In this document: in pieces, positions 11,792 through 64,000 of the stretch | Numbering within the stretch: position 1 is the stretch's first letter | Layout: every line of letters begins with the position of its first letter | Source of the DNA: an uncultured Chlamydiales bacterium | GTDB taxonomy: Bacteria; Chlamydiota; Chlamydiia; Chlamydiales; JAAKFR01 | Assembly: GCA_963699155.1 (NCBI GenBank) | Contig: OY969414.1 | Span: forward strand, 779,757 to 843,756 | Length of the DNA stretch: 64,000 nt | Direction: 5' to 3' | Translations under genes and position numbers: made by a program | Notes under the pieces: generated by a model | What the model saw: the letters and a program-made list of their open reading frames with translations, nothing else | Told to the model about the DNA's origin: nothing | Database searches by the model: none

Positions 11792-13225
11792 TTATTGTTC
11801 GACGTTGGAGAAGCCAGGCTTGCCGTCAAAGAGGTAGAGGTTTTGGGTCTGGATGATGTCGAGGCCTGCTTGATCGAGCTTCTGGAGGAGGGAGGTGATC
11901 TGGGTGAAGGGGATGGGGGAGGGGCTTTCGAATCTGCAGCGCCAGTGGTCGATACAGAAGGTTTCGGGAATGCCTTGGGGCCAGACCTTGACCCCGCGGT
12001 TGGTGATGAGGGAGAGCTTGAGGGTGGAGCCTAAGGGTTGGAGCCTTTTCTGGAGGGTGTCGACAGCATCGTGGGAGTAGAGGTAGACATCGACACCGAC
12101 GAGTTCGCGTTTGGTTGAGAAGGGGGTTGAACCGTGATGAGACCACTCTTCGTGGGGTTTGGTTTTGTAGGTGACTGCGGGGAGGGTTTTGGGTTTCTGG
12201 CCGAGGCGCAGGGCAATGGCTTCGGCAAACTCGCGGGTGCCTACTTTCTGGCGGCTGGTTGGCTCTCGATAGATGTCGGGGGTGTGGATCCCCTCTTCGA
12301 TTGTCTTGAGGAAGGCGTTGTGGATCTTTTCGGCCACCTCGGGCTGATGGATATGGACGAGCATGAGGACTGATGAGAGGAGGAGGCCAGCGGGGTTGGC
12401 CACATTTTGGCCAGCCCTTTTGGGAGCTGAACCGTGGATCGCCTCATACATGGCCCCCTTTTCGCCGATATTGGCAGTGCCGACCAGGCCGACGGAGCCG
12501 GTGATCTGGGCGGTCACATCGGAGACGATATCGCCATAGAGGTTGGGCATGACGATGAGATCGAAATGTTCGGGGGTATCTGCCACCTTGGCGGTGCCGA
12601 TATCGATGATCCAGTGCTCATGTTCGATCTGGGGGTACTCTTGAGCGATCTGGAGAAAAATTTTGTGAAAGAGACCATCGCTGAATTTGAGAATATTGTC
12701 TTTAGTGAAGCAGGTGACCTTTTTACGCCCATAGCGAACAGCATACTCGAAGGCGTAGCGGATGATCCGTTCACAACCGGGGCGACTGATCAGTTTTAGG
12801 GCCTGACAGACATCGGGGGTCTGCTGGTACTCGATTCCCGTATAGAGATCTTCCTCGTTTTCCCGGATAATGACGACATCCATTTGGGGATGTTTCGTCT
12901 GGATGAAGGGGTAGTAGGAGACGCAGGGGCGGACATTGGCATAGAGCCCCAGGGCTCCCCGGATAGTCACGTTGAGGCTGCGGTAACCCCCGCCCTGTGG
13001 GGTGGTGATAGGCGCTTTTAAAAAGACTTTTGTTCTACGGAGCGACTCCCAAGCCTCTGGCTCGATCCCTGCGGGCTCTCCCGCTAAGTAGACCTTTTCC
13101 CCAACAGCAATTTTTTCAATTTCGATCTGAGCCCCCGCCTCTTTCAAAACATGGAGAGTGGCGGCCATGATCTCTGGGCCGATGCCATCGCCCTCAGCAA
13201 CAGTTATAGGGGTTTTCTTGACCAT
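11792..13225 (-). CDS. icd: Isocitrate dehydrogenase
   Basis: GDGIGPE, IRENEEDLY, NLYGDIVSD, EAIHGSAP. Confidence 0.95.
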   Translation of the reverse strand: MVKKTPITVAEGDGIGPEIMAATLHVLKEAGAQIEIEKIAVGEKVYLAGEPAGIEPEAWESLRRTKVFLKAPITTPQGGGYRSLNVTIRGALGLYANVRPCVSYYPFIQTKHPQMDVVIIRENEEDLYTGIEYQQTPDVCQALKLISRPGCERIIRYAFEYAVRYGRKKVTCFTKDNILKFSDGLFHKIFLQIAQEYPQIEHEHWIIDIGTAKVADTPEHFDLIVMPNLYGDIVSDVTAQITGSVGLVGTANIGEKGAMYEAIHGSAPKRAGQNVANPAGLLLSSVLMLVHIHQPEVAEKIHNAFLKTIEEGIHTPDIYREPTSRQKVGTREFAEAIALRLGQKPKTLPAVTYKTKPHEEWSHHGSTPFSTKRELVGVDVYLYSHDAVDTLQKRLQPLGSTLKLSLITNRGVKVWPQGIPETFCIDHWRCRFESPSPIPFTQITSLLQKLDQAGLDIIQTQNLYLFDGKPGFSNVEQ

Positions 13226-13289
13226 AACCGCTACCTTAGAACATTTTTTCAATGACTTCAAGGCCCTTTCTGATTAAAATTCTACTCTC

Positions 13290-14249
13290 ATGTTCCAGGA
13301 TCTTTTAGTCAAACAGAAGCAGCATCTCGATACCTACTTCGATCAGATCGATAGTGCCAGTTGTGAAGCACTTGTCGATGCCATTTTAGCCTGCCAAGGG
13401 GTTCTCTATTTTACCGGGATCGGTAAGAGCGGTTTCGTCGCTCAAAAAATTGCCGCCACAATGCTCTCGACAGGGACCAAAGCCTTCTTTCTGCCACCGA
13501 TCGATGCGCTCCATGGTGATCTCGGCATGGTCGCTAAAAAAGATCTCGTCCTGATTTTGAGTAAGAGCGGCGAAACTGAGGAGCTTCTCCAGCTTCTGCC
13601 CTCGATTCGCAATAAAGGGGCAGCCATCGTCGCCATTACCTCAGAAAAGGGGAGCCGCCTGGCTAAGGGGGCCGATCGGACGGTCATTCTTCCTTGCGAA
13701 AACGAACTCTGCCCTTTCGATCTCGCACCGACCACCTCGACCGAAGTGCAACTGCTCTTTGGAGATGCTCTGGCGATTGCCTTGATGGAAAAGAGAGGTT
13801 TCAGTCTCGCCCAGTTTGCAGAGAACCATCCGGCAGGCCGCATCGGCAGGCGAAGCGCTCTCAAAGTGCGTGATCTGATGCTCGACGAGGAGCGCACACC
13901 TCTCTGTCTCTCCGACGATCGTTTAGAGGAAATTCTGGTCGATTTTTCGAGCAAGCGGTGCGGCTGCATGATCGTCATCGATAGCGACAAAAGACTGAAG
14001 GGCATTTTTACCGATGGCGACTTGCGACGCGCCCTCCAGGCAAAGGGGGAAATGGTCCTCCAACAACATGTAGGGGTACTAATGACCCAAACGCCGAAAT
14101 CGATTTCTGTGGATGCCGCTGCCTGGGATGCTTTGAAGCTGATGGAATCAGATCAAAAGCATCCTGTCATGGTTCTCCCCGTTCTCGATGATGAGGAGGC
14201 TGTCGTCGGCATCATCAAGATGCACGATCTGATCCAAGCTGGTCTTTGA
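13290..14249 (+). CDS. kdsD: Arabinose-5-phosphate isomerase (SIS + CBS)
   Basis: GIGKSG, HGDLG, APTTST, TDGDLRR. Confidence 0.92.
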   Translation: MFQDLLVKQKQHLDTYFDQIDSASCEALVDAILACQGVLYFTGIGKSGFVAQKIAATMLSTGTKAFFLPPIDALHGDLGMVAKKDLVLILSKSGETEELLQLLPSIRNKGAAIVAITSEKGSRLAKGADRTVILPCENELCPFDLAPTTSTEVQLLFGDALAIALMEKRGFSLAQFAENHPAGRIGRRSALKVRDLMLDEERTPLCLSDDRLEEILVDFSSKRCGCMIVIDSDKRLKGIFTDGDLRRALQAKGEMVLQQHVGVLMTQTPKSISVDAAAWDALKLMESDQKHPVMVLPVLDDEEAVVGIIKMHDLIQAGL

Positions 14250-14838
14250 GTGACGCACCACCCCATGCAAGCTGGTCTTTGATTTCCTGACTTGTTGCTT
14301 CTCTGATTTCCTTCCATGTTGCTTCTGTAAAGTAAGGCATGAAAAGATCACAACCCTCAAACTGCTGCTGGCTATGAGCCATGAAGGCGGCACCATCAAA
14401 ATGGGGCTGCAGGACTTTGATTTTTTCCCGACTCTGCTTCTTTAGCCAGATCCCGATGCCATAGAGATCCTCTTTCTCCAAATAATCCATCTTCTCCAGG
14501 CAGGTTAGAGGAATCTGCATCAAAGGTTTGCCATTTCTTTTGAAAGTCAGCGACTCTGCATCGACTTGCAACAGGTGGGGATGGAGCTGCAAGCGCGAGA
14601 GCTGGCGGTAGGGCCATAATCCGAGCGCAATCAACGCCATCCCTGTCAGAAAAAGGGGAATTCCGACGATTTTCAGAAGAGAAAGGGGCAAAAATGTCCC
14701 TCCAATAATGAGCAGGAGTGCCCCAGCTCCACCGAGAATGGCCCCCCGTTTGAGTGAATGATTTAGGAGCTGAGAGCGGATGGCGCTGCGATAGATTTCT
14801 CTTTCCGTGAGACGATCCATGCAAATAGGATATTCCAT
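14215..14838 (-). CDS. Hypothetical membrane protein
   Basis: 207-aa ORF, two TM segments. Confidence 0.65.
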   Translation of the reverse strand: MEYPICMDRLTEREIYRSAIRSQLLNHSLKRGAILGGAGALLLIIGGTFLPLSLLKIVGIPLFLTGMALIALGLWPYRQLSRLQLHPHLLQVDAESLTFKRNGKPLMQIPLTCLEKMDYLEKEDLYGIGIWLKKQSREKIKVLQPHFDGAAFMAHSQQQFEGCDLFMPYFTEATWKEIREATSQEIKDQLAWGGASLKDQLGSDRAS

Positions 14839-15530
14839 ACACTATAACAAAAGATACGGAAGAATGAGAGCGAGGAAGCAAAACTGGCCTCGATCACCTC
14901 ATCGCCTTTCCCCTCTAAAATCCATTTTAAACGGGCTATATTGAAGAAGAAGAGTCCTTTTTCAATAGTTGATTCCGTGACACTACCCTCCTTCGCCCAT
15001 TCCTTGACGAGATAGCGGTGCCATCCTCGAAGGAGCTTTTCGCGGCTGTTTCCACCCTCACTGTCGACATAATGGTCCAAAACATAGTTCTCGGAAGGAA
15101 AGAGAGTCTCTTTTTTAAGTATAGGCTGCTGAAAATAGGCGTAGCCCACAACCAGCATGGGCAGAATCCAAACAGTTTTGCTTGCCCCTTCGATCTGAAA
15201 GAGCAGGAGAAAGGAGATGAGGATGGAGAAAAAGAGCCAGGCGAGGGCAAACGGGGGAGTCGCACTCAAAAAATGGCTCCCTAACGCTTTCCAGAAGGAA
15301 GGGACAGTTTTCTGAAGGGCTACCGAATAGCCCTCTAAAATGAGCCGTTGGTCACTGGGAGAGAGCTGTTGAAACAACTCATTTTTTTCATGCACCATCT
15401 CATAGAGAGCGAGCTGCGATTTATAGGCTACGATTGCTTTGACATAGGGTTGAAGCAACAGCCAAAATAAAAAAGAAAATGCCAAACAAAGATGGCAGAT
15501 GATTAAAATTTTTTTCTTGCGAGACATCAT
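14763..15530 (-). CDS. Hypothetical membrane protein
   Basis: 255-aa ORF with several TM segments. Confidence 0.65.
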   Translation of the reverse strand: MMSRKKKILIICHLCLAFSFLFWLLLQPYVKAIVAYKSQLALYEMVHEKNELFQQLSPSDQRLILEGYSVALQKTVPSFWKALGSHFLSATPPFALAWLFFSILISFLLLFQIEGASKTVWILPMLVVGYAYFQQPILKKETLFPSENYVLDHYVDSEGGNSREKLLRGWHRYLVKEWAKEGSVTESTIEKGLFFFNIARLKWILEGKGDEVIEASFASSLSFFRIFCYSVWNILFAWIVSRKEKSIAAPSALSS

Positions 15531-27291: not shown

Positions 27292-29103
27292 ATGGCCGCT
27301 GTCGTTTTAGATCCATCTACCCCTGCCAACCCATTGAAAGAGAGAGGAGCTGTGATACCCTCTTCCTTTCTCCCCTTTGAGGAGTTTAAGGCAAAGTTTA
27401 GCTTAGGTGAAACCTCCACAGAGAAAGAAAATGTGAACACGCGTCACCTGAGCACAGTTCTGAGTGAAGATAGAGGCAAAGGGCTCTCCCTACTTTTGGC
27501 AGAAGAAGTCAATGTTATAGAAGGCTTTAAAAAGTTTGCCCCACAATTGGATCAACTTGCCCCTGAATTAGCGGAGAGAGCGAAACAGGGTGGACGCATC
27601 ATTTTTATCGGTGTTGGCTCTAGTGGACGACTTGGTTTGGATTTGGCTGCAAAAGTGACGTCACACTGTCCGGCGCTCAAATGTGTGGGGATTCTGGGAG
27701 GTGGAGATGGAGCCCTCATCCAGGCTAGAGAGGGTTTTGAAGATTCTCTTGCAGAAGGCAAAACCAGTGCTCAAAAAATGGCCATCACAGCGTTAGATAC
27801 CGTTTTTTTAATCTCTGCGAGCGGCTCTGCCTCATTTAATGCGGGCTTTGGGCATGAGGCGGCAAACCAGGGTGCCAAAGTCTTCTATTTCTACAACAGT
27901 CAAGAAGTGCCTACGAGGACAAAAGAGCTCTTCACGCGCATCAATAATCCTGTCATTCCCCTCTTACTCGACATTGGGCCTCAAGCCATTTTAGGATCAA
28001 CACGCCTCCAAGGATATAGTATAGGCCGAGTCTGTTTGGGCTACTTGTTAGGGCAAACCCTTTTCCATTTTGAGAATAGAGAAGATTGGGGGCACTATTC
28101 TTCTGTAGCTCTCGTTCACAAACTCGAGCTGGCTCTTAAAAACATCGACTCCCAGCTGGACAATCTGATTCGAATCATCGAGGAAGAATATCGCGTTTTT
28201 TCAAGCCCAGAATCCAACTTCAGGCGGGCGCGAGACATGACATCTGAGGGATATGTTACCTTGCTTGGCACTGCCTCTTCCCTCAGAGAAGAGTTGATTG
28301 ATAGTGTGGAAACCTCACCCACTTTCTTTTTGAACCCTCGGAAAAGAGAGCGTGAAGACAAAAAAAGACGCGCTGAATACCAAGCCTATCTCGTTGGTGA
28401 GTCAGATAATGTGAAGGCATGGAAGACGGTTTTAGGGAGAGATCCCTATTTTCCTGAGGATTGGAAGGAAGTCGATGACTTCATTCTCGCGGCAGAGATG
28501 GATGGGAAAGAAAGCTTTCAGAATCGTCCTCATGGCCCGGGTAATTTTGTCCTAGGGGTCGATGTATTGCACCGTGGTCAGACACTTTCTCCACAGCTTG
28601 TGGAGTCACTACACAAAGTGAAACAAGCAGGCGGGGGAACTGCGCTCCTCATTCTTTCAGAAGATCAACTCTCTGTTCCAGAGGATCTTGCAGATATTAT
28701 TTCTGTGGTGCAGCAGGAGGATGATCCATTGGGCATTATATTCAGTCAGTTACTGAAATGGCAGCTCAATCTCATTTCTAATGGCACGATGATTTTAATG
28801 GGTAAAGTCTCCGGCAATCGGATGATCGACTTGCGCACCTCCAACAACAAGCTGATTGATCGCTGCATGCGCCTCATCCATGAACAATGGTCCTTGCATC
28901 ACCCAGATGAGCCCCTTGATGATCGCAAACTGTATGAAATGATTATCGATGTTTATACCAAACAGAAAGGCAATCAAGAGCAGGGTGAATATACCCCTTC
29001 CACTTTAAAATTGGTTCTAGCCATGCTTGAGAAGCGCTCTTCATTCGAGGAGGCCACTCATCTGCTGAGAGAGATCGGCGAGAATATTGACCAATTATAT
29101 TAG
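27292..29103 (+). CDS. Tandem-SIS MurQ/GCKR-like protein
   Basis: GVGSSGRL, ISASG, GSTRL, DSVETSPTF, GKVSGNRMIDLRTSNNKL. Confidence 0.75.
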   Translation: MAAVVLDPSTPANPLKERGAVIPSSFLPFEEFKAKFSLGETSTEKENVNTRHLSTVLSEDRGKGLSLLLAEEVNVIEGFKKFAPQLDQLAPELAERAKQGGRIIFIGVGSSGRLGLDLAAKVTSHCPALKCVGILGGGDGALIQAREGFEDSLAEGKTSAQKMAITALDTVFLISASGSASFNAGFGHEAANQGAKVFYFYNSQEVPTRTKELFTRINNPVIPLLLDIGPQAILGSTRLQGYSIGRVCLGYLLGQTLFHFENREDWGHYSSVALVHKLELALKNIDSQLDNLIRIIEEEYRVFSSPESNFRRARDMTSEGYVTLLGTASSLREELIDSVETSPTFFLNPRKREREDKKRRAEYQAYLVGESDNVKAWKTVLGRDPYFPEDWKEVDDFILAAEMDGKESFQNRPHGPGNFVLGVDVLHRGQTLSPQLVESLHKVKQAGGGTALLILSEDQLSVPEDLADIISVVQQEDDPLGIIFSQLLKWQLNLISNGTMILMGKVSGNRMIDLRTSNNKLIDRCMRLIHEQWSLHHPDEPLDDRKLYEMIIDVYTKQKGNQEQGEYTPSTLKLVLAMLEKRSSFEEATHLLREIGENIDQLY

Positions 29104-29674
29104 GGCATCGAAATGCGGGAGAAGAACTCGGCGCGGAGGGTGCTGTTGTTCTCGAAGCAGCCCTTGAGAATGTGTGTTTCCATCGAAGCGGAGCAGTCTT
29201 GGACACCGCGTGCCACCATGCAGAAGTGGACGGCTTGGATGCAGACGGCCACGTTTTCTGTGTCGAGATGTTCGATCAGGGATTGAGAGATTTCAGCTGT
29301 CAGCCGCTCCTGCACCTGGGGACGTTTAGCAAAATAGTGGATGAGACGGGGAATTTTGGAGATACCCATAATTTTCTTATGGGGGAAGTAGGCGACATGG
29401 ACTTTTCCTGAGAGAGGAACAAAATGGTGCTCACAAAAGCTGACGAAGGAGATATTTTTGACCAGGACCATCTCTTCGGGGATGTTCTCTTCTTGGAAGG
29501 TCAGTTTGGGGAAGCTCTGGCTCTCTAGCCCTGAAAAGATCTCATCGACATACATGCGGGCGATTCGGTGTGGAGTTTCTTTAAGAGAAGGATCGTTGAG
29601 ATCGAGGCCAAGGATTTGCATCACCTCTGCCATTTTCTCGGCGATCAACTCTTTTTTCTTCTCAGGAGACAGTT

Positions 29675-29678
<4 letters not shown>
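29100..29678 (-). CDS. folE: GTP cyclohydrolase I
   Basis: ETPHR, CEHHFVP, QVQERLT, HFCMVARG. Confidence 0.95.
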
Positions 29679-31255
<1,577 letters not shown>

Positions 31256-32206: not shown

Positions 32207-33166
32207 TTAAGCACGAGGATGGGTCTTGTCGTAGACCTCTTTCTTCAGCTTGGGGGAGACGTGAGTATAGATGGTGGTGGTGGCGAGGGAGGTGTGGCCC
32301 AGGAGGAGCTGGATCGTTTTGAGGTCCATGCCGTTCTCGAGCCAGTGGGTGGCGATGGTGTGGCGGATGGTGTGGGGGGTGATGTGGCCGGCAAGGCCAC
32401 TCGACTTGAGGTAGGCGTCAAAGTTGCGGTCGACGGAGCGGGTGGAGAGGCGGGTACCGAGTTTGTTGAGGAAGATCGTGTGGGGGTCGGCTTCGGCTCT
32501 GTGGCCGTCGGCGTCCTGGTGGCGCTCGTGGTGGTTGAGATAGGCGGTGATCCAGTCGGCCGCGTTTTTGGTGATGGGGACGATTCGCTCTTTTTTCCCT
32601 TTACCACGCACTTTGAGAATGAGGGAAGAAAGGTCGCAGTCAGCACGATTGAGCCCCACCAGCTCACTGACGCGTAGTCCTGAGCTATAAAAGAGCTCCA
32701 TGATGCAACGGTCGCGGAAGCCGAGATAATCGTTAGTGTCGGGTTGATCGAAGAGGCGCAGAACATGATCATAGGAGAGAGAGACGGGGATCCGCTTCTC
32801 CAATTTGGGGCTTTCCAGCTCCTCTGCGGGACTTTTCTCTATCCATTTTTGGCGCACACAGAAGTTAAAAAAGGTACGTAAGGAAGAGAGGCGCCTGACT
32901 ATCGTCCTTTTCTGGATCTTGGCCTCGGCCAGGGAGGCGAGAAAATGACGGAGAGTTTTGCGATCAATCTGATCGAGTGAGATCGTCTCTTTTGAGAGGG
33001 GATGTGGAATGTGGCTGATCTTTGTCCCCTGTTTTTCAGCAGGAAGATCACGTTCTAGGAACTGTTTGAGGGCATTCAGATCGATGGCATAATTGCGGAT
33101 CGTATGCTCTGAAGCATTTTTGACGGCGCGTAAGTAGTCGAGGAATTGATAGGCTTCGTGGATCAT
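32207..33166 (-). CDS. xerC: Tyrosine recombinase XerC
   Basis: SGLRVSE, GKGKKER, HTIRHTIATH, LLGH, TTIY. Confidence 0.9.
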   Translation of the reverse strand: MIHEAYQFLDYLRAVKNASEHTIRNYAIDLNALKQFLERDLPAEKQGTKISHIPHPLSKETISLDQIDRKTLRHFLASLAEAKIQKRTIVRRLSSLRTFFNFCVRQKWIEKSPAEELESPKLEKRIPVSLSYDHVLRLFDQPDTNDYLGFRDRCIMELFYSSGLRVSELVGLNRADCDLSSLILKVRGKGKKERIVPITKNAADWITAYLNHHERHQDADGHRAEADPHTIFLNKLGTRLSTRSVDRNFDAYLKSSGLAGHITPHTIRHTIATHWLENGMDLKTIQLLLGHTSLATTTIYTHVSPKLKKEVYDKTHPRA

Positions 33167-34687: not shown

Positions 34688-35842
34688 TTAACTTTTGACA
34701 CGCTGTTGAAGGGCAAAGAAACGGAGCCTGCCGAGAAGGTATCCGAGAAGACCGCCGGCTATGTGGGCACTATTGGCGATGGTGATGGAGCTTTCAAAGC
34801 CGCTCGTCAACTGCAAGAAAAAGAAGATGAACTGCAGCAGGAACATGCCCACCACGAAAATGGCGAGGAAAATGAGGGTGAAACGCTGGAGGAGGTAACC
34901 CTCCCAGGGCGCTACCTGCTGTCTGGCCCAGATAAAGGCAGCCATGCCGACAACGATGCCTGAGAGACCCATAAAGAAGGGGCCGCTCATCAAATATTGA
35001 GCGGTGTTGGAAACAATTCCCGTGAGGAGAATAAAAATGAGGTAGCGAAAGGATCCCATTCGATATTCGATCTGATTGCCCAGCAGAATGAACCAGATGA
35101 GGTTGAAGAAAATGTGGAGCAGATCGAGGTGGAGAAGAGCCGGTGTAAATAGGCGCCACACCTGCCCCTCACCGATTTTTTCAAAAAGAGGACCCTTGTA
35201 GGCTAATGGATAGTTGCCATTCTTGAAATGGTTGACGATCCTTTCGTAAATGCCCATCCAGACAGGGGTCTGACGCATCTCTTGGAGAATTTTTCGCGCT
35301 TCGGGCGAAGGGGGGTTTTGGCGTTCAATTTCAATGGGGGTATAGACTTTGAGTAAGCGATCTCTGAGTTGAAAATAGAGAGGATAGTCATAGATCAGAG
35401 CTGTTTCTAAGGTGGAGAGAGTGGGTGCCTGGATGACACCTGGGATCGCAGGCGGGGTCAAGTGGCCTCTTTGCAGAAGGGAGAGTAAAAAGAGCGAAAC
35501 GGTCAAGAAGAGCACGACGATGGAGATAGGGCCATATGGGGAGGGTGAAAGGATACGACGTCGACGAGGTACTGGCTGTTCTTCATCGCTCGCTGGTGCG
35601 CCACGATCAGCGTGCCCTCTGATTTTTGTCTGGTAACGGGAATCAGTGGGATTAGCTTGATATTCTCTGTAGAGGGCTTGGGCCTGCTCGACCTGATCTT
35701 CGTCATAGACCCAGATCCGATATTGCTCCTTTCCCTGGGGACTCTCCTCACATTCGTTTTTGATGCCTTGTGAGGTTAAATAATAAGAAAAGGCAGAAGG
35801 GTTTTCGCGCTCAGTGGCAGTGATTGTACAAATCAGCCTCAT
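34688..35842 (-). CDS. Rhomboid intramembrane protease (GlpG-like)
   Basis: WRLFTP, HIFFN, GLSG, AHIAG. Confidence 0.9.
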   Translation of the reverse strand: MRLICTITATERENPSAFSYYLTSQGIKNECEESPQGKEQYRIWVYDEDQVEQAQALYREYQANPTDSRYQTKIRGHADRGAPASDEEQPVPRRRRILSPSPYGPISIVVLFLTVSLFLLSLLQRGHLTPPAIPGVIQAPTLSTLETALIYDYPLYFQLRDRLLKVYTPIEIERQNPPSPEARKILQEMRQTPVWMGIYERIVNHFKNGNYPLAYKGPLFEKIGEGQVWRLFTPALLHLDLLHIFFNLIWFILLGNQIEYRMGSFRYLIFILLTGIVSNTAQYLMSGPFFMGLSGIVVGMAAFIWARQQVAPWEGYLLQRFTLIFLAIFVVGMFLLQFIFFFLQLTSGFESSITIANSAHIAGGLLGYLLGRLRFFALQQRVKS

Positions 35843-44997: not shown

Positions 44998-45026
44998 AGT
45001 AAGTCGATCACAAACCAGGGAGGAAC

Positions 45027-47036
45027 GTGAGCCAGTCTACACAAACCCAATCTCAGACGGCACTACAAACCTTAAAAATCCTCTATCTCTCTCGCTTTGC
45101 CGATGAGAAAATGGCCAAGCTGGCCAAGCAGAATAAAGGAGGCACCTTCCAGCTTTCGGCTGCGGGGCATGAGCTGGTCGGCGCTGTCTGCGCACAAAGT
45201 TTAGTCTCTGGCAAAGATTGGGGTTTACCCTACTACCGAGATCAAGGTTTCGCATTGGGGATCGGTTGTGAGTTGACAGAGCTGTTCGGCGTCTTTTTGG
45301 GGCGCGAAACGGTCAACCACTCGGCGGGAAGAATGATGCCCCACCACTATTCCGATAAGAAGCGGCGTATCATCTGCCAATCGAGCGTGGTCGGCTCTCA
45401 ATTTCTCCATGCCGTAGGGAAGGCGATCGCGATCAAAAATTTGGGCAAAGATGAGCTGGTCTATGTCTCCGCAGGAGAGGGAGCCACCTCACAAGGCGAC
45501 TTCCACGAGGCTCTCAATTTTGCCTCGATCCATCAGCTTCCCGTCATTTTTGTCATCCAGAACAATGGGTGGGCCATTTCTGTTCCTGTCGAAGAGCAGT
45601 CTGCAGGTGGCAGTTTGATCGAGGTGATGCGTGGCTATTCCGGTATGAGTGTGGAAGAGGTCGATGGCACCGATTATCTCGCCCTGAAAGAGGCGATGGA
45701 GAGAGCTGTGAAACGGGGACGAGAAGGGCGAGGTCCGACAGCGATGATGGCCCATGTCCCCCGCTTAGCAGCGCATAGCAATAGCGACAATCCCAAAAAG
45801 TATCTAAGAGACGAGATGGAGCTCCATGCATTGGCGCGCGACCCGATTCCTGTTTTTGAAAAATGGCTGAGCGATCAGGGAATTGAGTTTACAGCTGTGC
45901 GCGAAGCTGCCCAAGCAGAGGTGGAAGCCGCTGCTGCTGCCGCGGAAGCTCTTCCTTTCCCTGCACAGGGCAGTAGCCGTATGCATGTTTTTGCTCCCTT
46001 TGATCCTCCTGTTCCTTTATCAGAACAGCCTCCACAGGAGGGTGAGAAGATCGTTATTATGGATGCGATCAACCATGCATTGATCGAGGAGATGGAACAA
46101 GATCCCCACGTGGTCGTCTTTGGACAAGATGTGGCTCACGGCAAAGGGGGAGTTTTCGGGATCACCCGCACTCTGACAGAACGGTTTGGAAAGGAGCGCT
46201 GCTTCAACACTCCTTTAGCCGAGTCGACGATCATCGGCCTCGCCATCGGCCTATCGATGGATGGCATCCATAAGCCCGTTGCCGAAGTCCAATTTGCCGA
46301 CTACCTCTGGACAGGGATCAATCAGCTCTTCAATGAGGCTTCCAGCATCCACTACAGGTCTAACGGGGAGTGGGAGGTGCCGATCGTCGTGCGCATGCCC
46401 TGCGGCGGCTACATTCAGGGCGGCCCCTATCACTCACAAAGTATCGAAGGCTTTCTCACCCACTGCCCAGGGTTAAAAGTGGTTATCCCAAGCAATGCTG
46501 CCGATGCAAAAGGGCTGTTAAAAACGGCGATCCGTGATCCCAATCCGGTACTCTTTTTAGAGCATAAGGGACTCTACCGTCAGCAGAAATTTTGTGCCCG
46601 CCCCGAACCCTCCAAAGACTATCTCATCCCCTTCGGTCAAGCCTCCACAGTTCGTTCTGGAACTGACCTCACAGTCATCTGTTGGGGCATGATGGTGGTG
46701 ATGGCAGCAGATGTGGCCGAAAAGCTAGCCTTCGAAGGTATTTCTATCGAAGTGATCGATCTGCGCACTCTCGTGCCACTCGACAGCGCCACCATCATCA
46801 CCTCGATTCAAAAGACAGGTAAGGCATTGATCGCTCACGAAGCGCCCCGCAACTGCGGGTTTGGCGCCGAAATCGCCGCCCGCATCGCCGAAGAGGCCTT
46901 CGAGTATCTCGATGCCCCCATCCAGCGCGTCTGCGGCTTCGACAGCCCCGTCCCCTACAGCAAAACGCTCGAAAACGAGGTCCTTCCCCAAACCGCCGAT
47001 CTCGAGTCCGCCATCCGCCACCTCGCGAGGTATTAA
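45027..47036 (+). CDS. Fused E1 alpha/beta 2-oxoisovalerate dehydrogenase
   Basis: TPP motif GEGATSQG..NN; GVFG, FNTPLAE, HSQS. Confidence 0.92.
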   Translation: MSQSTQTQSQTALQTLKILYLSRFADEKMAKLAKQNKGGTFQLSAAGHELVGAVCAQSLVSGKDWGLPYYRDQGFALGIGCELTELFGVFLGRETVNHSAGRMMPHHYSDKKRRIICQSSVVGSQFLHAVGKAIAIKNLGKDELVYVSAGEGATSQGDFHEALNFASIHQLPVIFVIQNNGWAISVPVEEQSAGGSLIEVMRGYSGMSVEEVDGTDYLALKEAMERAVKRGREGRGPTAMMAHVPRLAAHSNSDNPKKYLRDEMELHALARDPIPVFEKWLSDQGIEFTAVREAAQAEVEAAAAAAEALPFPAQGSSRMHVFAPFDPPVPLSEQPPQEGEKIVIMDAINHALIEEMEQDPHVVVFGQDVAHGKGGVFGITRTLTERFGKERCFNTPLAESTIIGLAIGLSMDGIHKPVAEVQFADYLWTGINQLFNEASSIHYRSNGEWEVPIVVRMPCGGYIQGGPYHSQSIEGFLTHCPGLKVVIPSNAADAKGLLKTAIRDPNPVLFLEHKGLYRQQKFCARPEPSKDYLIPFGQASTVRSGTDLTVICWGMMVVMAADVAEKLAFEGISIEVIDLRTLVPLDSATIITSIQKTGKALIAHEAPRNCGFGAEIAARIAEEAFEYLDAPIQRVCGFDSPVPYSKTLENEVLPQTADLESAIRHLARY

Positions 47037-48656
47037 ATGGCCATCTCTGTAGCAACAGAAGTGAGCAACCCCCTCATATCAGCAAACACGCAAACCCCAA
47101 AACTCAAAATCATCATCGAGGCGATCAGCATCATTCTGTTGATTGGGAGCTTGGTCGCTGCGGGCCTTCTCTTTCCGCGGATGGGCTACCCCGCATGCGC
47201 CATTGCAGGGGGCGGCATCGCCCTCACCATTCTCAGCTTTGCTCTAGTAAGCTATTGCCGACCAGAACCTACACCTCCCTCCTCTTCTGCCACCTTCACT
47301 CCACTGCTCAATCAGCAATTTGAGGCTTCAGAAATGAAGATCGCGGAGCATCGCATTGCCGATATCCCCCTCGAATTCCTCTTTAAACCTCCCACCCTAT
47401 CTGATCGACTCGATCCCCGTTCCTGGTATCACGACTCATGGAATGTGATGGAGGATCAGAAAAATCAGGAGGCAATGCGCGCTGTCCATTCTCGTATCCA
47501 GGCTCTCAATCAAGCCTTCAACTTCGAAGAACGTTTCAAGCGATTGGATTGTGATGATCTGCGGGTGAAAGATCTGATGGGGCCCCTCTCTGCCAAGAGT
47601 TCTCTCTTATTAAAGATGATGCTGGATGAGGAGCTAGTGACGCTCACACTCTCTTCGGTTAGCTCAATCAAAGACAAAAAGGTCTGGAAGGCCTTTGGCC
47701 CGCGCCTGATTGCCTTGAGTCGTCAACATCCTCAATACACTTTCCCTGCTCTTCTCACGCAAGAAAGTGTCGGAACCATCCCCCTGATACATCTTCCCAA
47801 GCTGAAAGCAGAAATGATCAATGCTCACCCGCAGCTTTTCCCACCCCTCACCCTGCTCCTTATCGAGACTGAGGAGCTACAAAAAATAGAGCTCACGAAA
47901 CTCTCTGATGAGCATCTACAGATCCTCTTTTCCTGTAGATTTTATGATTCTGCGCCTGATCCCCATAACTGCTACTATCCCTTTGTCCAGCGTCTCAAAC
48001 CTGAGCAGGTCAATGGAAGCTTACAGCGCATTTCCCAGATGCAGATCAATAAATACTCACATCCCGACCACAGAGGCTGGATCACGGTATTCACTAACCA
48101 TGGTTATGAACTTCTGGACCGCCTCAGCGAAACCCAGATTCTCCATCTTGATCTCTCCCTGATGACCCCCCAAATTTTTAATGTTATTTTTACAACCACT
48201 CATACCTTTTCTGGAGCCAACAAACTCCTCCCCAAATTCCCCCTAGCCTCGATCTACCGGTTGATGCGTTTCTTTCCCAAAGATAGCTTATGGCACTGCA
48301 TTGGAGAAGCACATGCTCTTGCTTTTGAATTCTCCCAAATTGCCGACGATCATCAAAGAAAGGAGGTGTTTAATAAACTCTTCCCCTGGTATCCCCTGAA
48401 AAAATGTACCCTAGAACGCATTCAGGAACTTTCTCCTCTCTTCTCTGATCTCCATTGGCGCGCTATCAGGGAGGAGCATGCGGGTTCCCTCGACTACTCT
48501 CGCATCCCTGAAGCCAATCGTCAAAGAGTCCTCAACCTCATCTTCGAAGGCGGAGGTTCCTACTCATCTGCCGCTCTCTACCTCCCTAAGCTCTCCTCCA
48601 CCCAAAAAGCGTTCGTCAAACCCTACCTCTCCCCCGAGGCCCTTAAACACCTTTGA
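47037..48656 (+). CDS. Inc-like/effector-like protein
   Basis: N-terminal bilobed hydrophobic region, long Leu-rich tail. Confidence 0.65.
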   Translation: MAISVATEVSNPLISANTQTPKLKIIIEAISIILLIGSLVAAGLLFPRMGYPACAIAGGGIALTILSFALVSYCRPEPTPPSSSATFTPLLNQQFEASEMKIAEHRIADIPLEFLFKPPTLSDRLDPRSWYHDSWNVMEDQKNQEAMRAVHSRIQALNQAFNFEERFKRLDCDDLRVKDLMGPLSAKSSLLLKMMLDEELVTLTLSSVSSIKDKKVWKAFGPRLIALSRQHPQYTFPALLTQESVGTIPLIHLPKLKAEMINAHPQLFPPLTLLLIETEELQKIELTKLSDEHLQILFSCRFYDSAPDPHNCYYPFVQRLKPEQVNGSLQRISQMQINKYSHPDHRGWITVFTNHGYELLDRLSETQILHLDLSLMTPQIFNVIFTTTHTFSGANKLLPKFPLASIYRLMRFFPKDSLWHCIGEAHALAFEFSQIADDHQRKEVFNKLFPWYPLKKCTLERIQELSPLFSDLHWRAIREEHAGSLDYSRIPEANRQRVLNLIFEGGGSYSSAALYLPKLSSTQKAFVKPYLSPEALKHL

Positions 48657-48696
48657 TATTTGAACGAGAATCAGTGATTCCCTTGCTGTAACAATA

Positions 48697-48782
48697 TACC
48701 CGACGCACCATCACTCGGCTATCGCCTCGGATGATGGCGCGGGTAAAGCTCACCGAAGGTCGCTACGCTCCCAACGGCTCGG
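48697..48782. repeat. REP-like double hairpin
   Basis: tacccgacgcaccatca...tgatggcgcgggta plus second GC hairpin around cgctacgct. Confidence 0.5.
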
Positions 48783-48888
48783 AAAATTCATGTTTGAGAG
48801 GATTTTTTAACATTGACATTACAGTGAGACTGGGGATGAAAGAATTCCATTCTTACGTTATTATTCATCCAAACTGAATAAGGTAACT

Positions 48889-50796: not shown

Positions 50797-50816
50797 AATT
50801 GGAAAGAACATTATAC

Positions 50817-50985
50817 TAACCTGAATTTTGGGTTTTTTTCCCTCAGATTCAGGCAGTTTACTTGCACCTCTTGTGCTTTTCGCCCTTGCAGAGGGCCTTT
50901 GGCCATTTGCTGCGGCCGAAAATCCCAAGATTTGCTGCGTAAACTCCTCTGAATCTGAGGGAAAAAAAACCCAAAATTCAGGTTA
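50817..50985. mobile_element. MITE-like element with 36/37-bp terminal inverted repeats
   Basis: taacctgaattttgggtttttttccctcagattcag vs ctgaatctgagggaaaaaaaacccaaaattcaggtta. Confidence 0.78.
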
Positions 50986-60368: not shown

Positions 60369-61534
60369 GTTTTGAATCTTTTCAATTAGATCCCTTAGTA
60401 CTCGATGCTATTCGAGAAATGGGATACACCACGCCGACACCTATCCAGAATCGGGCAATTCCGCTCATTCTCGAAGGGAGAGATCTCATCGCCCTTGCTG
60501 AAACGGGATCTGGAAAAACTGCTGCCTGTAGCATCCCCTTATGCCATAAGGTGAGAGCGAGTGAGAACCCAATTCAGGTGCTCATCGTCGTACCTACAAG
60601 GGAGCTGGCGCTCCAGTATGCGACAGAGACACAAAAGATCGGTCGCGTCAAAAAGGTGCGTGCTTTTGCCCTATTCGGTGGCGAAGATATGACGATGCAG
60701 CGGGCGAAGCTGAGGGATGGTGTTCACATTCTTATCGCAACTCCTGGCCGGTTGATCGACTTCATCTATGCAAGGGCGATCGATTTGACCCATGTGGAAA
60801 CGCTCGTTCTCGATGAGGCCGACCAGATGCTCGGTATGGGATTTTATGAAGATCTCGAATTCATCATCCAGTGCTTGATCCACGACCACCAGACACTTCT
60901 CTTTTCAGCCACGATGCCGAAGCAGATCAGTGAAATCGCCAAGCACCATATGCGCCAGCCCTTCGAACTCTCATTGATCGGAGAGACACCTACCCCCGAA
61001 AATCTCTCCCACCAATTTCTCTTCTGTCCTCATCCGAAACAGCGTCCGGAAGAGCTGCTCCACCTGCTCCAAACGATCGATCCCAAACAGTGCATCATCT
61101 TTGCCAACTCCCGCCGCGAAGTGGAAGAGCTCCACCGCACACTCCGCTCCCGCCTCAACGGCGTCGATTTCCTCCATGGTGGCCTCGAGCAGAACATCCG
61201 CACCATCATCACCAACAAATTCAAACGGGGCACCATCCGCTACCTCGTCGCCACCGACATCGCAGCCCGCGGCCTCGACTTCTCCAATGTCACCCACGTC
61301 TTTAACTACCACTTTCCCTTCGAACAGGATACCTATCTCCACCGCGCCGGCCGCACAGGCCGTTCCGGCAGATCAGGCACCTGCATCACCCTCGTCACCC
61401 ATCGCGACCTGGGCGCCATCCGCCAACTTCTGAAGGTCCTCCCCAAAGAGCCACAATGGCTCCGTGAACCCCCTCCACCCGGCTCTCCACCCCCTCATCG
61501 ACCACCGCCGCATCGCCGCCCCCCTCGCCGCTGA
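60341..61534 (+). CDS. DEAD-box RNA helicase
   Basis: GSGKT, PTRELA, DEAD, SAT, HRAGRTGR. Confidence 0.95.
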   Translation: MEPDQRESLSFESFQLDPLVLDAIREMGYTTPTPIQNRAIPLILEGRDLIALAETGSGKTAACSIPLCHKVRASENPIQVLIVVPTRELALQYATETQKIGRVKKVRAFALFGGEDMTMQRAKLRDGVHILIATPGRLIDFIYARAIDLTHVETLVLDEADQMLGMGFYEDLEFIIQCLIHDHQTLLFSATMPKQISEIAKHHMRQPFELSLIGETPTPENLSHQFLFCPHPKQRPEELLHLLQTIDPKQCIIFANSRREVEELHRTLRSRLNGVDFLHGGLEQNIRTIITNKFKRGTIRYLVATDIAARGLDFSNVTHVFNYHFPFEQDTYLHRAGRTGRSGRSGTCITLVTHRDLGAIRQLLKVLPKEPQWLREPPPPGSPPPHRPPPHRRPPRR

Positions 61535-61594
61535 CTCTTCCCCAGCCCGAAACACCTTGAAATGAGATGGGGGATTTGTTAAACAGCGACTCTA

Positions 61595-61757
61595 GTGCCC
61601 AACCACAAAAGTTTTTGCCATTTTGGCTGCGTCAAAGCCCCGGGGCGCAACGATCGCAAATGGGTCCATATTGGATTAATATTGACCCATTTGCGATCGT
61701 TGCTCCGCGGGAGCTTTCACGCTCGCCTAAATGGCAAAAACTTTCGTGGTCGGGCAC
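61595..61757. repeat. 163-bp long palindromic element (MITE/RPE-like)
   Basis: gtgcccaaccacaaaagtttttgccat...atggcaaaaactttcgtggtcgggcac; perfect core gcaacgatcgcaaatgggtc/gacccatttgcgatcgttgc. Confidence 0.88.
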
Positions 61758-61768
61758 AAGGTCAAAGC

Positions 61769-62293
61769 TTGTTAAAATCTCTTTTTTTCATATTCTTTTT
61801 TCTCTCTTCTTCTCTGTTTGCAAGATCAAACGTTGAATATTCAGGAGATATTTTGCAGTGGGCTCTGCCTGCGGCAACTTTTGGAGTGACATTGATTAAA
61901 AATGATTGGCGAGGCTCCCTGCAAGATATAGCCACTATTGGTACGACACGCGGTACTGTCTGGGTGCTGAAAAAAACAATAAAGAGCACAAGACCTCGTG
62001 GAAATTGTGGCAGATCCTTTCCCTCAGGGCACACAGCCGTTTGTTTTGCAGCAGCAGGATTTATCCAAAAGCGGTATGGCTGGGGATACGGAGTCCCATT
62101 TTTAGCAGCAGCAAGCTATGTAGGCTTTACTCGCTTGCATGCCAAAGCCCACTGGTTCCGGGATGTGGTGGCAGGAGCGGCAATTGGCTGGATTTATAGC
62201 CGGATCTTTGTGACACCCTTCTGCCCAAGGCTTTCTCTTGATTTACAAATGACCTCTGATTCCGCTACTCTTTGCGCACACTGTCAATTTTAA
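61769..62293 (+). CDS. PAP2 family phosphatase
   Basis: K..RP, SFPSGHT, R....HW..DV; signal peptide from TTG at 61769. Confidence 0.85.
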   Translation: MLKSLFFIFFFLSSSLFARSNVEYSGDILQWALPAATFGVTLIKNDWRGSLQDIATIGTTRGTVWVLKKTIKSTRPRGNCGRSFPSGHTAVCFAAAGFIQKRYGWGYGVPFLAAASYVGFTRLHAKAHWFRDVVAGAAIGWIYSRIFVTPFCPRLSLDLQMTSDSATLCAHCQF

Positions 62294-62302
62294 AGGAACA
62301 CT

Positions 62303-62953
62303 ATGACTAAACTTTCATGGATTGTGATGGCCTGCCTTTTCTTCTCTCTTCCCTGTTATGCGCACTCAGTATGGTCCATTGAGGGGGCGCTCGGAGGGAT
62401 CTATAATTTTCCAATCCCCTTAAATATCTCACAAGATGGCTATCCTGATATTGACCTCACTGCGCGCTATGAAACACGCCCCTTTAAGCTTCCGCCTTAC
62501 TATATGCTTCGCGTTGGCAGATGGAAAAATTGCAAAGCCTTTGAGGTAGAATTTACCCACCATAAACTTTATCTGATCAACAACCCCCCGAGCGTCAAAA
62601 GATTTACCATCACAAATGGTTATAACTTGCTGACATTCAATTATGCTCATTTATTAAAATATGATTTTATCTTCCGTTTTGGCTTAGGGATCACAATTAC
62701 TCATCCAGAATCGAGGATTCGAGACTTAAAATTTAATGAAAAGGGGGGCACCCTAAACAATCGGGGATATTATGTGTCGGGCCCTATGGCAATGCTTTCC
62801 TTAGGAAGGCGTTTTTATCTATGTAAGAGGCTCTTCTTTCAGCTTGAGGGCAAGCTGACAGCTGCTATCGCCGATGTAAGAATAGCTAGGGGTCATGCTT
62901 TCGCCCCTAACGTGGCCCTCCATGGCTTATGCGGAATTGGAATAGATCTTTGA
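62303..62953 (+). CDS. Putative outer-membrane beta-barrel protein
   Basis: Signal peptide and amphipathic strands. Confidence 0.6.
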   Translation: MTKLSWIVMACLFFSLPCYAHSVWSIEGALGGIYNFPIPLNISQDGYPDIDLTARYETRPFKLPPYYMLRVGRWKNCKAFEVEFTHHKLYLINNPPSVKRFTITNGYNLLTFNYAHLLKYDFIFRFGLGITITHPESRIRDLKFNEKGGTLNNRGYYVSGPMAMLSLGRRFYLCKRLFFQLEGKLTAAIADVRIARGHAFAPNVALHGLCGIGIDL

Positions 62954-62964
62954 CACATGAGCTA

Positions 62965-63390
62965 TCAAGTCCGGCCTCCTTTTTCGCCAGAAGCTCGGGG
63001 AAAATATTCAGAAGTAGCAAGGTGGTGGCGAGAAAGCAGAATCTCTTCAATATAAGCATTTAAGCTGCAGTCTTTCATGGCAGCTTCAAGGGAGAGTTCT
63101 CTATGTAAATCAGGAGTAATGCGGAGGTTAAACTTCCCCGAATAGGGTTTTTCAGGATCCTCACCCTGCTCTTCGCAAAAAGTAAGGTAATCCTCAATGG
63201 ACTCTTCAAATGCCGCACAAAGAGCTTGTGGAGTGACACCTTCATAAGTAATCACATCACGCGTGCCAATCACGCTGCCGTGAAGGACATTACTTTCAAA
63301 GTCTAGTTCTATCGAACCGAGATAACCCTTGTAGGGGCCAACTGTATATGGACTTGTTGGCTCTATTTTTTTTATTTTCTTTTTACTCAT
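62965..63390 (-). CDS. hicB: HicB antitoxin
   Basis: YKGYLGSIE, PEKPYSGKFNLRI..LH RHH tail. Confidence 0.9.
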   Translation of the reverse strand: MSKKKIKKIEPTSPYTVGPYKGYLGSIELDFESNVLHGSVIGTRDVITYEGVTPQALCAAFEESIEDYLTFCEEQGEDPEKPYSGKFNLRITPDLHRELSLEAAMKDCSLNAYIEEILLSRHHLATSEYFPRASGEKGGRT

Positions 63391-63640
63391 CTGTAATCCC
63401 CACCTCTTCTAAAAATTTACGCACATTCTCCACAGCATACTTTTTTGCTATTGGCTTTGGGTGCGGCCTATGAAAGACGGCCATTCTTTCTCTAAATTTT
63501 ATCCGGACACGCGATCCATTCCCCTCTTTAATCTGAGCGCCGAGATAAGTCAAAAGAGACTCAATTTCATTCCAGCGAATATCTCCTCTGGTTGGCGTCT
63601 CAAATATGTGTTTTAGCGTTTTCTCTTGGCGCGAGTTCAT
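63383..63640 (-). CDS. hicA: HicA toxin
   Basis: EGNGSRV, FHRPHP. Confidence 0.9.
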   Translation of the reverse strand: MNSRQEKTLKHIFETPTRGDIRWNEIESLLTYLGAQIKEGNGSRVRIKFRERMAVFHRPHPKPIAKKYAVENVRKFLEEVGITDE

Positions 63641-63648
63641 TAGCTTCA

Positions 63649-63677
63649 ATAGTACCACAAAGTGGTATTATCTGGAA
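63649..63677 (-). promoter_or_regulatory. Putative hicAB promoter with palindromic operator
   Basis: TTCCAG-17-TACTAT (TG-extended); TACCAC-aaa-GTGGTA. Confidence 0.6.
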
Positions 63678-63680
63678 ATG

Positions 63681-64000
63681 TTATCTGAGTAAAAGGGGTT
63701 TGAGGGAGGCGAGGAGGGCGGAGGCGCGGGTGTCGCAGGCGGTGATGGCCTTCTGGAGGGCGTGGAGGTCGCTATGGTGGTGTTTGTCGACCACGGAGCA
63801 GTAGAGTTTGATTTTGGGTTCGGTGCCGGAGGGGCGGATGACGAGTTTGGTGCCATCAGCAAGCCAGAGGCGGAGGACGTCGGAATGGGGGAGAAGGAGC
63901 GGCTCTTTGTGGCCCGATTCGAGGTGGAGGGTGGTGCGGTTGAGGTAATCTTCAATTGTGACGACCTGTTTGCCATCGATCTGCTGGAGAGGTTGCGTGC
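63681..64000 (-). CDS. Phosphoglucomutase/phosphomannomutase, 3' part (truncated by window)
   Basis: VIRPSGTEPKIKLY in frame not listed in ORF track. Confidence 0.9.
   Translation of the reverse strand, partial: TQPLQQIDGKQVVTIEDYLNRTTLHLESGHKEPLLLPHSDVLRLWLADGTKLVIRPSGTEPKIKLYCSVVDKHHHSDLHALQKAITACDTRASALLASLKPLLLR

Follow-up and report, generated by a model that had tools for sequence, protein, structure and literature searches.

The stretch of DNA considered here (the window) comprises 64,000 nucleotides (nt) from an uncultured Chlamydiales bacterium (contig OY969414.1 of assembly GCA_963699155.1; G000:C1:779757-843756), whose genome, here called G000, is a single contig of 2,399,326 bp with a guanine-plus-cytosine (GC) content of 47.5%. 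The subject of this study is a class of C-rich, G-poor tracts in its conserved genes, many of which end in a few hundred nucleotides of nearly all C-ending codons, mostly beside DNA that varies between species. Pfam annotation of the window agreed with the gene names of a preliminary description (icd, folE, an ABC-F gene, a xerC-type recombinase gene, an rnz-like gene, dedA, a fused E1 dehydrogenase gene, a NUDIX gene, comEC, dnaX and a DEAD helicase gene).

Genomes and definitions

The gene set of G000 (1,955 genes) was obtained with a rough home-made caller, transcription units were inferred from spacing only, and junctions and gene ends were counted only for genes of at least 720 nt. Tracts were located using a strand-agnostic log-odds segmenter for C-rich/G-poor DNA with a main threshold of 20 bits, and shuffles in 2-kb blocks served as the null. 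The GC skew at third codon positions (skew3) was calculated for the last 240 nt of a gene in the genome-wide comparisons of gene ends; C3, G3 and GC3 are the corresponding third-position contents. Junctions were classed as conserved or variable against one relative of the same genus, G002, which was fetched whole, has about 72% DNA identity to G000, is syntenic with the window and shares 1,153 reciprocal-best orthologs. Two further members of the genus (G001 and G003) and a 100-kb sample of a genome from another genus (G010) were used for comparison. The cumulative skew of G000 locates the origin at about 340 kb and the terminus at about 1.6 Mb, and its chromosome-wide replication skew is only about 0.03-0.05.

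Skewed gene ends in the window

Nine of the 168 tracts of at least 20 bits in G000 fall in the window, where the skew of 240-nt bins reaches +0.52 and -0.37. These tracts and the further skewed gene ends are listed below in the order of their coordinates.

11831..12399, minus strand: tract at the 3' end of icd (gene 11792-13261), 44 bits, GC3 up to 0.80
29100..29400, minus strand: 3' end of folE, moderate skew below the threshold, skew3 -0.40 in the last 300 nt
32250..32579, minus strand: 3' end of the xerC-type recombinase gene (32207-33166), tract of 43 bits
34315..34681, minus strand: gene for a 128-residue protein, C-rich throughout, 38 bits, skew3 -0.72
35303..35552, minus strand: weaker tract in the interior of the rhomboid protease gene, 20.4 bits
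39830..40130, plus strand: 3' end of dedA, below the threshold but strongly skewed, skew3 -0.69, GC3 0.85
46737..47036, plus strand: 3' end of the fused E1 dehydrogenase gene, skew3 -0.61, GC3 0.80
47724..48258, plus strand: tract inside the gene for a 539-residue membrane protein (47037-48656), 20.3 bits
48912..49167, minus strand: tract over the 5' end of the NUDIX gene, whose codons are G-rich there because it is the minus strand that is rich in C, 28.6 bits
56088..56532, minus strand: tract at the 3' end of dnaX, 38 bits, partly driven by amino acids
60880..61556, plus strand: 3' end of the DEAD-box helicase gene (60341-61534), tract of 56 bits, skew3 -0.50 and -0.76
63662..63946, minus strand: tract at the 3' end of a gene for a 593-residue protein ('pgm'; 63681-65462, running off the window), 39 bits

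Six of the nine tracts adjoin DNA that differs from G002. The icd gene, in which skew3 takes the values -0.44, -0.46, -0.60 and -0.67 over the last 1.2 kb, faces with its tract a toxin-antitoxin-like locus of 1.35 kb (10447-11791); G002 has about 0.4 kb at this place without a toxin-antitoxin-like module, and the last 300 nt of its icd have a skew3 of only -0.12. The Pfam Iso_dh domain and the C-terminal domain of the icd protein are intact in G000. The last 300 nt of xerC (skew3 -0.71, GC3 0.90) face a locus (31256-32206) of 0.95 kb in G000, the corresponding lengths in G001, G003 and G002 being 2.4, 3.2 and 4.9 kb, and the tract is kept in all four members of the genus (-0.33 in G002, -0.51 in G003 and -0.53 in G001). 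The helicase and 'pgm' tracts face the same locus (61535-63680) from opposite sides; its contents, genes for PAP2, a 216-residue protein and HicB, had no match in the syntenic 100 kb of G002, where the helicase tract is kept (-0.48 and -0.55).

The end of dedA faces an island (40131-43821) containing AbiE and an insertion sequence, which is absent from G002; there dnaJ follows dedA after about 250 nt and the skew3 of dedA is -0.16. The E1 end adjoins the gene for the 539-residue protein, which G002 lacks, and has a skew3 of -0.39 in G002, 0.00 in G003 and -0.12 in G001. The tract inside that gene, which had no match in the corresponding region of G002, shows C skew at all three codon positions. 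The folE end faces a gene for a 603-residue SIS protein, also without a match in the G002 region, and in G001 the last 300 nt of folE reach -0.66. The gene for the 128-residue protein (-0.48 in its G002 ortholog) and dnaX (followed by ybaB after 15 nt) lie at junctions that are conserved in G002. In dnaX the skew at codon position 2 is -0.79 in the last segment and that at position 3 is -0.49 in the preceding one, the last 300 nt of the G002 ortholog having an overall skew of -0.33; the rhomboid segment has an overall skew of -0.36 and a third-position skew of -0.43.

The NUDIX gene (48889-49443, plus strand) has the opposite bias, with a skew3 of +0.65 in its first 300 nt. The tract lies 170-420 nt past the stop codon of comEC (49336-50928, minus strand), which is convergent with the NUDIX gene and overlaps it. 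The 5' skew3 is +0.42 in G003 and +0.32 in G001, where comEC overlaps the NUDIX gene as well, and +0.12 in G002, where comEC is 16.7 kb away and E1 adjoins the NUDIX gene. Since G002 also lacks the insertion upstream of the NUDIX gene, the distance of comEC and the insertion are inseparable as causes.

The preliminary description had reported, from hand counts, that conserved genes become C-rich and G-poor on the strand reading towards neighbouring accessory loci, and that genes starting at such loci are G-rich. Its counts were reproduced (32221-32460, G 44.6% and C 17.5%; 61081-61320, C 40.8% and G 17.5%; 49021-49140, G 40.8% and C 17.5%), and the ends it named are strongly C-skewed in icd, xerC, dedA, E1, the helicase gene and 'pgm', the skew of folE being only moderate. 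The starts of NUDIX, ABC-F and rnz (skew3 +0.34 in the first 300 nt of ABC-F and +0.24 in rnz) are G-rich as it had said, although this is mostly generic to gene starts, with a small extra at variable loci (see below). The G-richness of dnaJ lies at codon position 1 and thus reflects amino-acid content.

Tracts in the whole genome

The 168 tracts of at least 20 bits compare with 11 in the shuffles, and the 78 of at least 30 bits with one. Their median length is about 350 nt (range 250-980 nt). Among 80-codon windows skew3 varies with a standard deviation of 0.239, where a binomial model gives 0.159. The C-rich strand is the coding strand in most tracts (139/168) and the other strand in 22, and seven tracts are intergenic; 97 of the 139 on the coding strand end within 60 nt of the stop codon, and five of the 22 apparently antisense ones are probable gene miscalls, so that about 17 are truly antisense. 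Two calls of the tract finder are sequences of a different kind, namely a C-rich tandem repeat called as intergenic (C1:1254621-1255109; unit of about 110 nt, open in most frames) and a 122-nt microsatellite of proline and glycine codons (C1:1295533-1295655). Windows with a skew3 of -0.5 or below make up 40/2479 in the first fifth of genes and 207/1698 in the last fifth, and G3-rich windows show the opposite trend (81/2479 versus 24/1698).

When split by codon position, the skew was mainly at the third position and is therefore mainly synonymous. Every codon family moves to its NNC member in tracts, with G-ending codons falling to about one third and A- and T-ending codons falling equally; at four-fold degenerate sites C doubles from about 0.33 to 0.66-0.72 and G drops to about one third. 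Amino-acid usage is also shifted, with proline rising from 0.047 to 0.088, glycine falling from 0.065 to 0.043, and threonine and histidine increasing. Three-base periodicity is clear in the tracts, where C has a median of 0.59 at the best phase (versus 0.35). No C-rich word recurs in them in comparison with codon-shuffled tracts, the top 6- to 8-mers being sparse purine words with 12-97 occurrences.

The skew ends at the stop codon. At tract-bearing ends followed by a gap of at least 100 nt it is -0.33 in the last 240 nt and -0.03 in the next 100 nt, and the spacers after stop codons range from -0.03 to -0.06. Genes with a co-directional gene at most 40 nt downstream have a mean skew3 of -0.114 in their last 240 nt and bear a tract in 5.9% of 506 cases; the remaining gene ends have values of -0.21 to -0.28 and bear a tract in 15-34%. 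Leading- and lagging-strand genes have similar means (skew3 -0.326 and -0.378, respectively).

Four-fold degenerate sites are saturated between G000 and G002 (identity 0.33-0.38), and the 71% C found at these sites in tracts is therefore an equilibrium and not history. The G002 sites orthologous to G000 tracts have 38.5% C against about 30%, and the end skew is correlated between orthologs of the two genomes (Spearman 0.41-0.47; contrast between end and middle of the gene 0.29-0.40).

Association with species-variable junctions

Among the 3' ends of core genes in G000, 129/156 of those bearing a tract lie at a junction that is variable in comparison with G002, as opposed to 247/629 of the other ends. 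The mean skew3 and the frequency of tracts change with the class of junction as follows.

Conserved, operon-like junctions: mean skew3 -0.097, tract at 7/259 ends
Conserved, other junctions: mean skew3 -0.185, tract at 12/99 ends
Junctions with extra DNA in G002: mean skew3 -0.329, tract at 23/81 ends
Rearranged junctions: mean skew3 -0.377, tract at 49/133 ends
Junctions with extra DNA in G000: mean skew3 -0.428, tract at 35/73 ends

The difference persists among pairs for which co-transcription is impossible or unlikely. Convergent pairs in G000 have a mean of -0.368 at variable junctions (59/164 with a tract) versus -0.242 at conserved ones (6/37; p=0.003), and co-directional pairs with a gap of at least 150 nt have -0.375 versus -0.103 (p=0.0003). 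From the junction the effect at 3' ends falls to baseline over about 800 nt. Compared with conserved ones, variable 3' ends have a higher C3 (0.427 versus 0.339), a lower G3 (0.179 versus 0.220) and a higher GC3 (0.606 versus 0.559). G002 has the same features in weaker form (66 tracts versus 10 in shuffles), and its ends that are not operon-internal have a skew3 of -0.224 at variable and -0.146 at conserved junctions (p=0.0045). The 100-kb sample of G010 contained no tract. A literature search of partial coverage returned no account of synonymous C-tracts at gene ends beside variable loci.

The suggestion in the preliminary description that the skew is tied to accessory loci thus holds genome-wide against one relative, and third-position skew is, as it proposed to check, concentrated near synteny breakpoints. 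It had also argued against replication skew, with which the similar values of leading- and lagging-strand genes agree, and against ordinary codon bias; the mainly third-position signal speaks against a bias of amino acids.

Gene starts, paired flanks and antisense tracts

Whether a junction is conserved or variable, genes have more G in their first 200 nt than in the gene body. Measured towards the locus, skew3 at gene starts is +0.032 at conserved and -0.021 at variable junctions (baseline about +0.15), and the extra shift at variable 5' ends is small (G3 0.268 versus 0.241, p=0.0085; C3 0.262 versus 0.278). The difference between variable and conserved junctions is about 3.5 times stronger at 3'-facing ends (-0.185) than at 5'-facing ends (-0.053 in the first 200 nt), and GC3 is not raised at variable 5'-facing ends (0.530 versus 0.519).

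The two flanks of a locus co-vary. At convergent variable loci the Spearman correlation is 0.41 (n=82), and at tandem variable loci a C-richer upstream 3' end goes with a G-richer downstream 5' end (correlation coefficient -0.31, n=98, p=0.002), as compared with +0.04 at tandem conserved loci (n=42). These correlations fade to 0.22 (p=0.07) and -0.08 (not significant) once the mid-gene skew is subtracted, and the ten conserved convergent pairs also correlate (0.60, p=0.07). The two sides of a locus are thus not affected equally, 3' ends being much the stronger side.

Roughly one in two of the true antisense tracts is situated downstream of a convergent gene that shares its strand. The strongest and longest tract of G000 (C1:2332431-2333414; 983 nt, 95 bits) is antisense over an amine-oxidase/NAD-binding-like gene, whose coding strand has 39% G and 14% C for about 1 kb. 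This gene and a two-gene operon are convergent, and the gene order is the same in G002. The start of a RecD-like gene carries the opposite (G-rich) bias as well.

Other features of the window

Positions 15559-21408 contain two neighbouring large genes for STAND-type NTPases (AAA_16, 16416-18392; NACHT, 18389-20332) beside unknown genes; one related gene was found in G002. In the island behind dedA the AbiEii toxin gene is split into two open reading frames (40168-40602 and 40580-41041) beside an AbiEi antitoxin gene, the whole covering 40168-41656 and being absent from G002. The insertion sequence of that island (41864-43130; helix-turn-helix transposase reading frames 42052-42546 and 42583-43359) has at least 11 more copies in G000 with 99-100% identity. 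Just past the stop codon of the DEAD helicase gene and inside the start of the PAP2 reading frame, at about 61645-61700, there is an inverted repeat whose 17-nt arms match perfectly and enclose a loop of about 19 nt. The 539- and 128-residue proteins (47037-48656 and 34299-34685) have no Pfam hits and each contain a two-lobed hydrophobic segment resembling the one typical of chlamydial inclusion-membrane proteins; the 128-residue protein also has a proline-rich tail.

Putative Rho-type terminators in coding ends

We consider the tracts as candidate Rho-utilisation (rut)-type terminators or insulators embedded in the coding ends of genes, an interpretation drawn from sequence features that we prefer to its rivals and to which we give somewhat less than an even chance. 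Behind the last ribosome, the transcript would expose a long C-rich 3' portion free of structure; Rho would load on it and halt RNA polymerase just past the stop codon, and transcription would thereby be kept from entering the downstream DNA. The signal would lie inside the coding sequence because coding DNA alone is stably retained: where islands, insertion sequences and rearrangements keep replacing the DNA past the stop codon, only embedded signals would persist. Alternatively, insertions may survive best behind genes that already carry such signals. Tracts of G-rich codons, such as that at the 5' end of the NUDIX gene, would be the same signal for the transcript of the convergent gene, placed antisense over its neighbour. 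Rho loading on translated RNA, the termination itself and the selection holding about 100 silent sites are the steps that we infer.

The strand and position of the tracts, their rarity before close co-directional genes, the base pattern and the avoidance of the signature at gene starts fit a terminator of the rut type. To our knowledge, Rho acting on nascent RNA is the only bacterial reader of long, C-rich, G-poor, motif-free and strand-specific sequence (PMC12360218, PMC12350095). The antisense tracts that lie downstream of a convergent gene on the same strand (NUDIX, about half of the others and the 983-nt tract) count for this interpretation, as does the correlation of end skews between species at saturated sites, which indicates that the signal is maintained. 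Terminators consisting of a hairpin and a T-run were not enriched in 20 kb of the window (29000-48999; 18 versus 21.7 +/- 5.3 in shuffles), and genome-wide they occur at 5-11% of transcription-unit ends, equal to the antisense control strand; another mode of termination is therefore needed. A complementarity between hairpins and tracts was considered and rejected, as tract ends are not poorer in hairpins (11/102 versus 14/272) and both groups match the antisense control. Keeping transcription out of horizontally acquired DNA by Rho and NusG has a precedent (PMC6797219, PMC12360218).

A full-length rho gene is present in 18/21 relatives, including all three genomes of the same genus, and nusG is intact in G000. 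The rho gene of the G000 assembly (C1:89955-91199) has five single-base indels in comparison with G002. Of 1420 mapped G002 proteins, 20 fall in at least two frames in G000, and the 18 that were scanned with Pfam are mostly highly conserved housekeeping genes; the split genes include rpoC (at least four frame pieces; C1:1241534-1245585), EF-Tu, LepA, two of GyrB type, Mfd, RecO and Tgt. Since essential genes cannot all be dead, the splits in rho, rpoC, EF-Tu and gyrB are most likely consensus errors. The indels in rho are thus probably an error of the assembly consensus and weigh neither for nor against the involvement of Rho, and the idea that rho is a pseudogene, with the tracts as relics or as sequences released by its loss, was withdrawn because rpoC and other housekeeping genes are split likewise. 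In G010, whose genome is 71% complete, the rho region (C1:242844-244091) is in pieces, one of them with nine in-frame TGA codons; reading-frame statistics over 100 kb gave no clear call for a different genetic code.

Several observations weigh against the proposed terminators. Classical rut sites measure about 60-90 nt, a length that the tracts exceed by a factor of 3-10. The tracts are part of translated RNA, where ribosomes should shield them, and the untranslated spacer is not C-rich although a rut site would be cheaper to evolve there; selecting about 100 synonymous sites per gene also seems demanding for an intracellular bacterium. In a regression, a variable junction predicts a tract (t=-6.7) and a transcription-unit end alone does not (t=-0.4). 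Only 17 of the 52 sense tracts of G002 end at the stop codon, and convergent pairs in G002 show no effect of variable junctions (-0.249 versus -0.228, p=0.58). The lack of tracts in the G010 sample means that use of Rho alone does not yield the signature. Three of the nine window tracts lie at a conserved junction or inside a gene (the gene for the 128-residue protein, the middle of the rhomboid gene and the 3' end of dnaX), and dedA has no tract in G003 (-0.12) or G001 (-0.18) despite the 8-9.5 kb present there, which counts against the link to variable loci.

Alternative explanations

The preliminary description had also offered a mutational origin, and a strand-polar mutation or biased conversion at hotspots of gene gain and rearrangement, acting on homology arms so that the strand running 5' to 3' towards the hotspot drifts to C, appears to us doubtful, though it deserves serious attention. 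Such a process best explains why junction variability outranks transcription-unit ends as the main predictor of tracts and why flanks co-vary; rearranged junctions behave like insertions, variable 5' ends shift in the predicted direction, and in a small population bias may lead to extreme composition more easily than selection. It fails to explain the 3.5-fold dependence on orientation (139 sense versus about 17 antisense tracts), since a process at the level of DNA should ignore the orientation of genes, nor the base pattern, in which A, T and G all lose to C and which is not the signature of transitions, nor the unskewed spacers, even though these could be explicable as recently exchanged DNA. 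Deamination of cytosine in 3' tails or resected single-stranded DNA has the opposite sign to the tracts, and the fall of G3 excludes GC-biased conversion. The co-variation of flanks weakens after mid-gene subtraction and is also seen at the ten conserved convergent pairs, and the strongest tract as well as those of dnaX and of the gene for the 128-residue protein lie at conserved junctions. We know of no mechanism for such a strand-polar process, which counts against it. The proposed tie to synteny-variable junctions stands, and the asymmetry, the limit at the stop codon, the change of A, T and G to C and the sign opposite to deamination favour a C>G signal acting in RNA over mutation. We regard as improbable that the tracts are an ordinary gene-polar codon gradient, with G at starts and C at transcription-unit ends, linked to loci only because conserved adjacency marks operons. 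The genome-wide 5'-to-3' gradient in 977 genes, the lack of tracts at operon-internal ends, the equal G-enrichment of gene starts at conserved junctions and the absence of an effect at convergent pairs in G002 would all follow from it, but the effect in G000 persists in convergent pairs and across gaps of at least 150 nt, and the comparison of ends that are not operon-internal is significant in G002 too.

That C-ending, optimal codons are favoured near gene ends by translational selection is very unlikely in our view. It would account for the confinement of the tracts to coding sequence with three-base periodicity and for the preference for NNC in every codon family; on the other hand, real genes are biased oppositely where the other strand is C-rich (NUDIX, the amine-oxidase-like and the RecD-like genes), amino-acid usage shifts as well, and translation gives no reason to depend on the neighbouring junction. 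Foreign gene ends, acquired by recombination with a donor or as surrogate 3' ends on an integrating element, as is the case for icd in E. coli, would account for why the tracts favour 3' ends, break off sharply at the stop codon, adjoin islands and differ between species, and icd is among the examples. This explanation is already largely refuted and hardly credible: the identity to G002 of the last 80 residues is 0.707 versus 0.712 for the rest in the 156 genes with a tract (0.686 versus 0.702 in 484 genes without one; p=0.18), secondary copies of the C-terminal 100 residues within 30 kb occur in 9/156 tract genes versus 8/156 controls and are for the most part paralogs with identities of 30-48%, the islands have an AT-rich composition without skew, and the G-rich 5' tracts misfit the codon usage of a donor. 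The equal protein identity inside and outside tracts also rules out relaxed constraint. Replication skew was ruled out by the amplitude and local extent of the tracts, the unskewed spacers and the similar values in both replichore orientations. An oriented array of motifs, such as Chi-like or uptake sequences, was rejected as no C-rich word recurs in comparison with codon-shuffled tracts.

Comparison with known systems

Like the rut sites of E. coli, B. subtilis and M. tuberculosis, the tracts are strand-specific, C-rich and G-poor at the level of RNA, have no fixed motif and appear, from gene spacing, to lie largely at transcription-unit ends. Rut sites can lie inside coding sequence, and intragenic Rut sites are on record (PMC12350095). 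The tracts have the length of C-rich/G-poor sense strand (at least about 70-80 nt) by which rut sites are defined. Unlike them, they extend over 250-980 nt, are built almost entirely from synonymous codons, stop at the stop codon rather than running into the 3' untranslated region, and concentrate at species-variable junctions. The silencing of acquired DNA by Rho and NusG in Salmonella and E. coli is similar in that termination bars outside transcription from foreign DNA (PMC6797219; PMC12360218, citing Cardinale 2008); there, termination takes place in or at AT-rich, H-NS-bound DNA with little dependence on rut binding, whereas the candidate signal described here lies in the conserved flanking genes.

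Replication GC skew shares with the tracts an asymmetry of G and C between strands that changes sign, around a variable locus as around an origin, but the tracts have about ten times its amplitude, are local (about 800 nt), are absent from spacers and depend on gene orientation. GC-biased gene conversion would likewise raise GC3 in core genes beside hotspots (0.606 versus 0.559 here), yet here C alone rises and G falls, and 5'-facing ends show no rise of GC3. Mutation clusters of the kataegis type at breakpoints have a mirror-image strand polarity on both sides, as the tracts do; they arise in a single event in which C is lost on the strand ending 3' at the break, whereas here the strand ending 3' at the locus gains C up to the equilibrium at four-fold sites. 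Surrogate ends of the icd/e14 type are set apart by the equal protein identity of gene ends and the lack of an excess of nearby duplicates.

Implications

It is possible, though we put it forward only tentatively and think it rather unlikely as a whole, that a genus of environmental chlamydiae marks its hotspots of gene gain and rearrangement with mirror-polar 'no-entry' tracts in the flanking synonymous sites, by means of either coding-embedded terminators or an undescribed strand-polar conversion. If so, silent-site composition would, with either origin, predict where the genome is plastic. A mutational origin would reveal an unknown strand-asymmetric process at recombination hotspots. Coding-embedded terminators, for their part, could define where foreign DNA is safely kept: stretches of hundreds of bases would serve as termination signals wholly through synonymous choice, with strong local constraint on silent sites, and there would be a link between the location of accessory DNA and the insulation of its flanks from transcription. 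They would also provide a predictor of integration hotspots and transcription-unit ends that uses sequence only, in organisms that are unculturable and without hairpin terminators.

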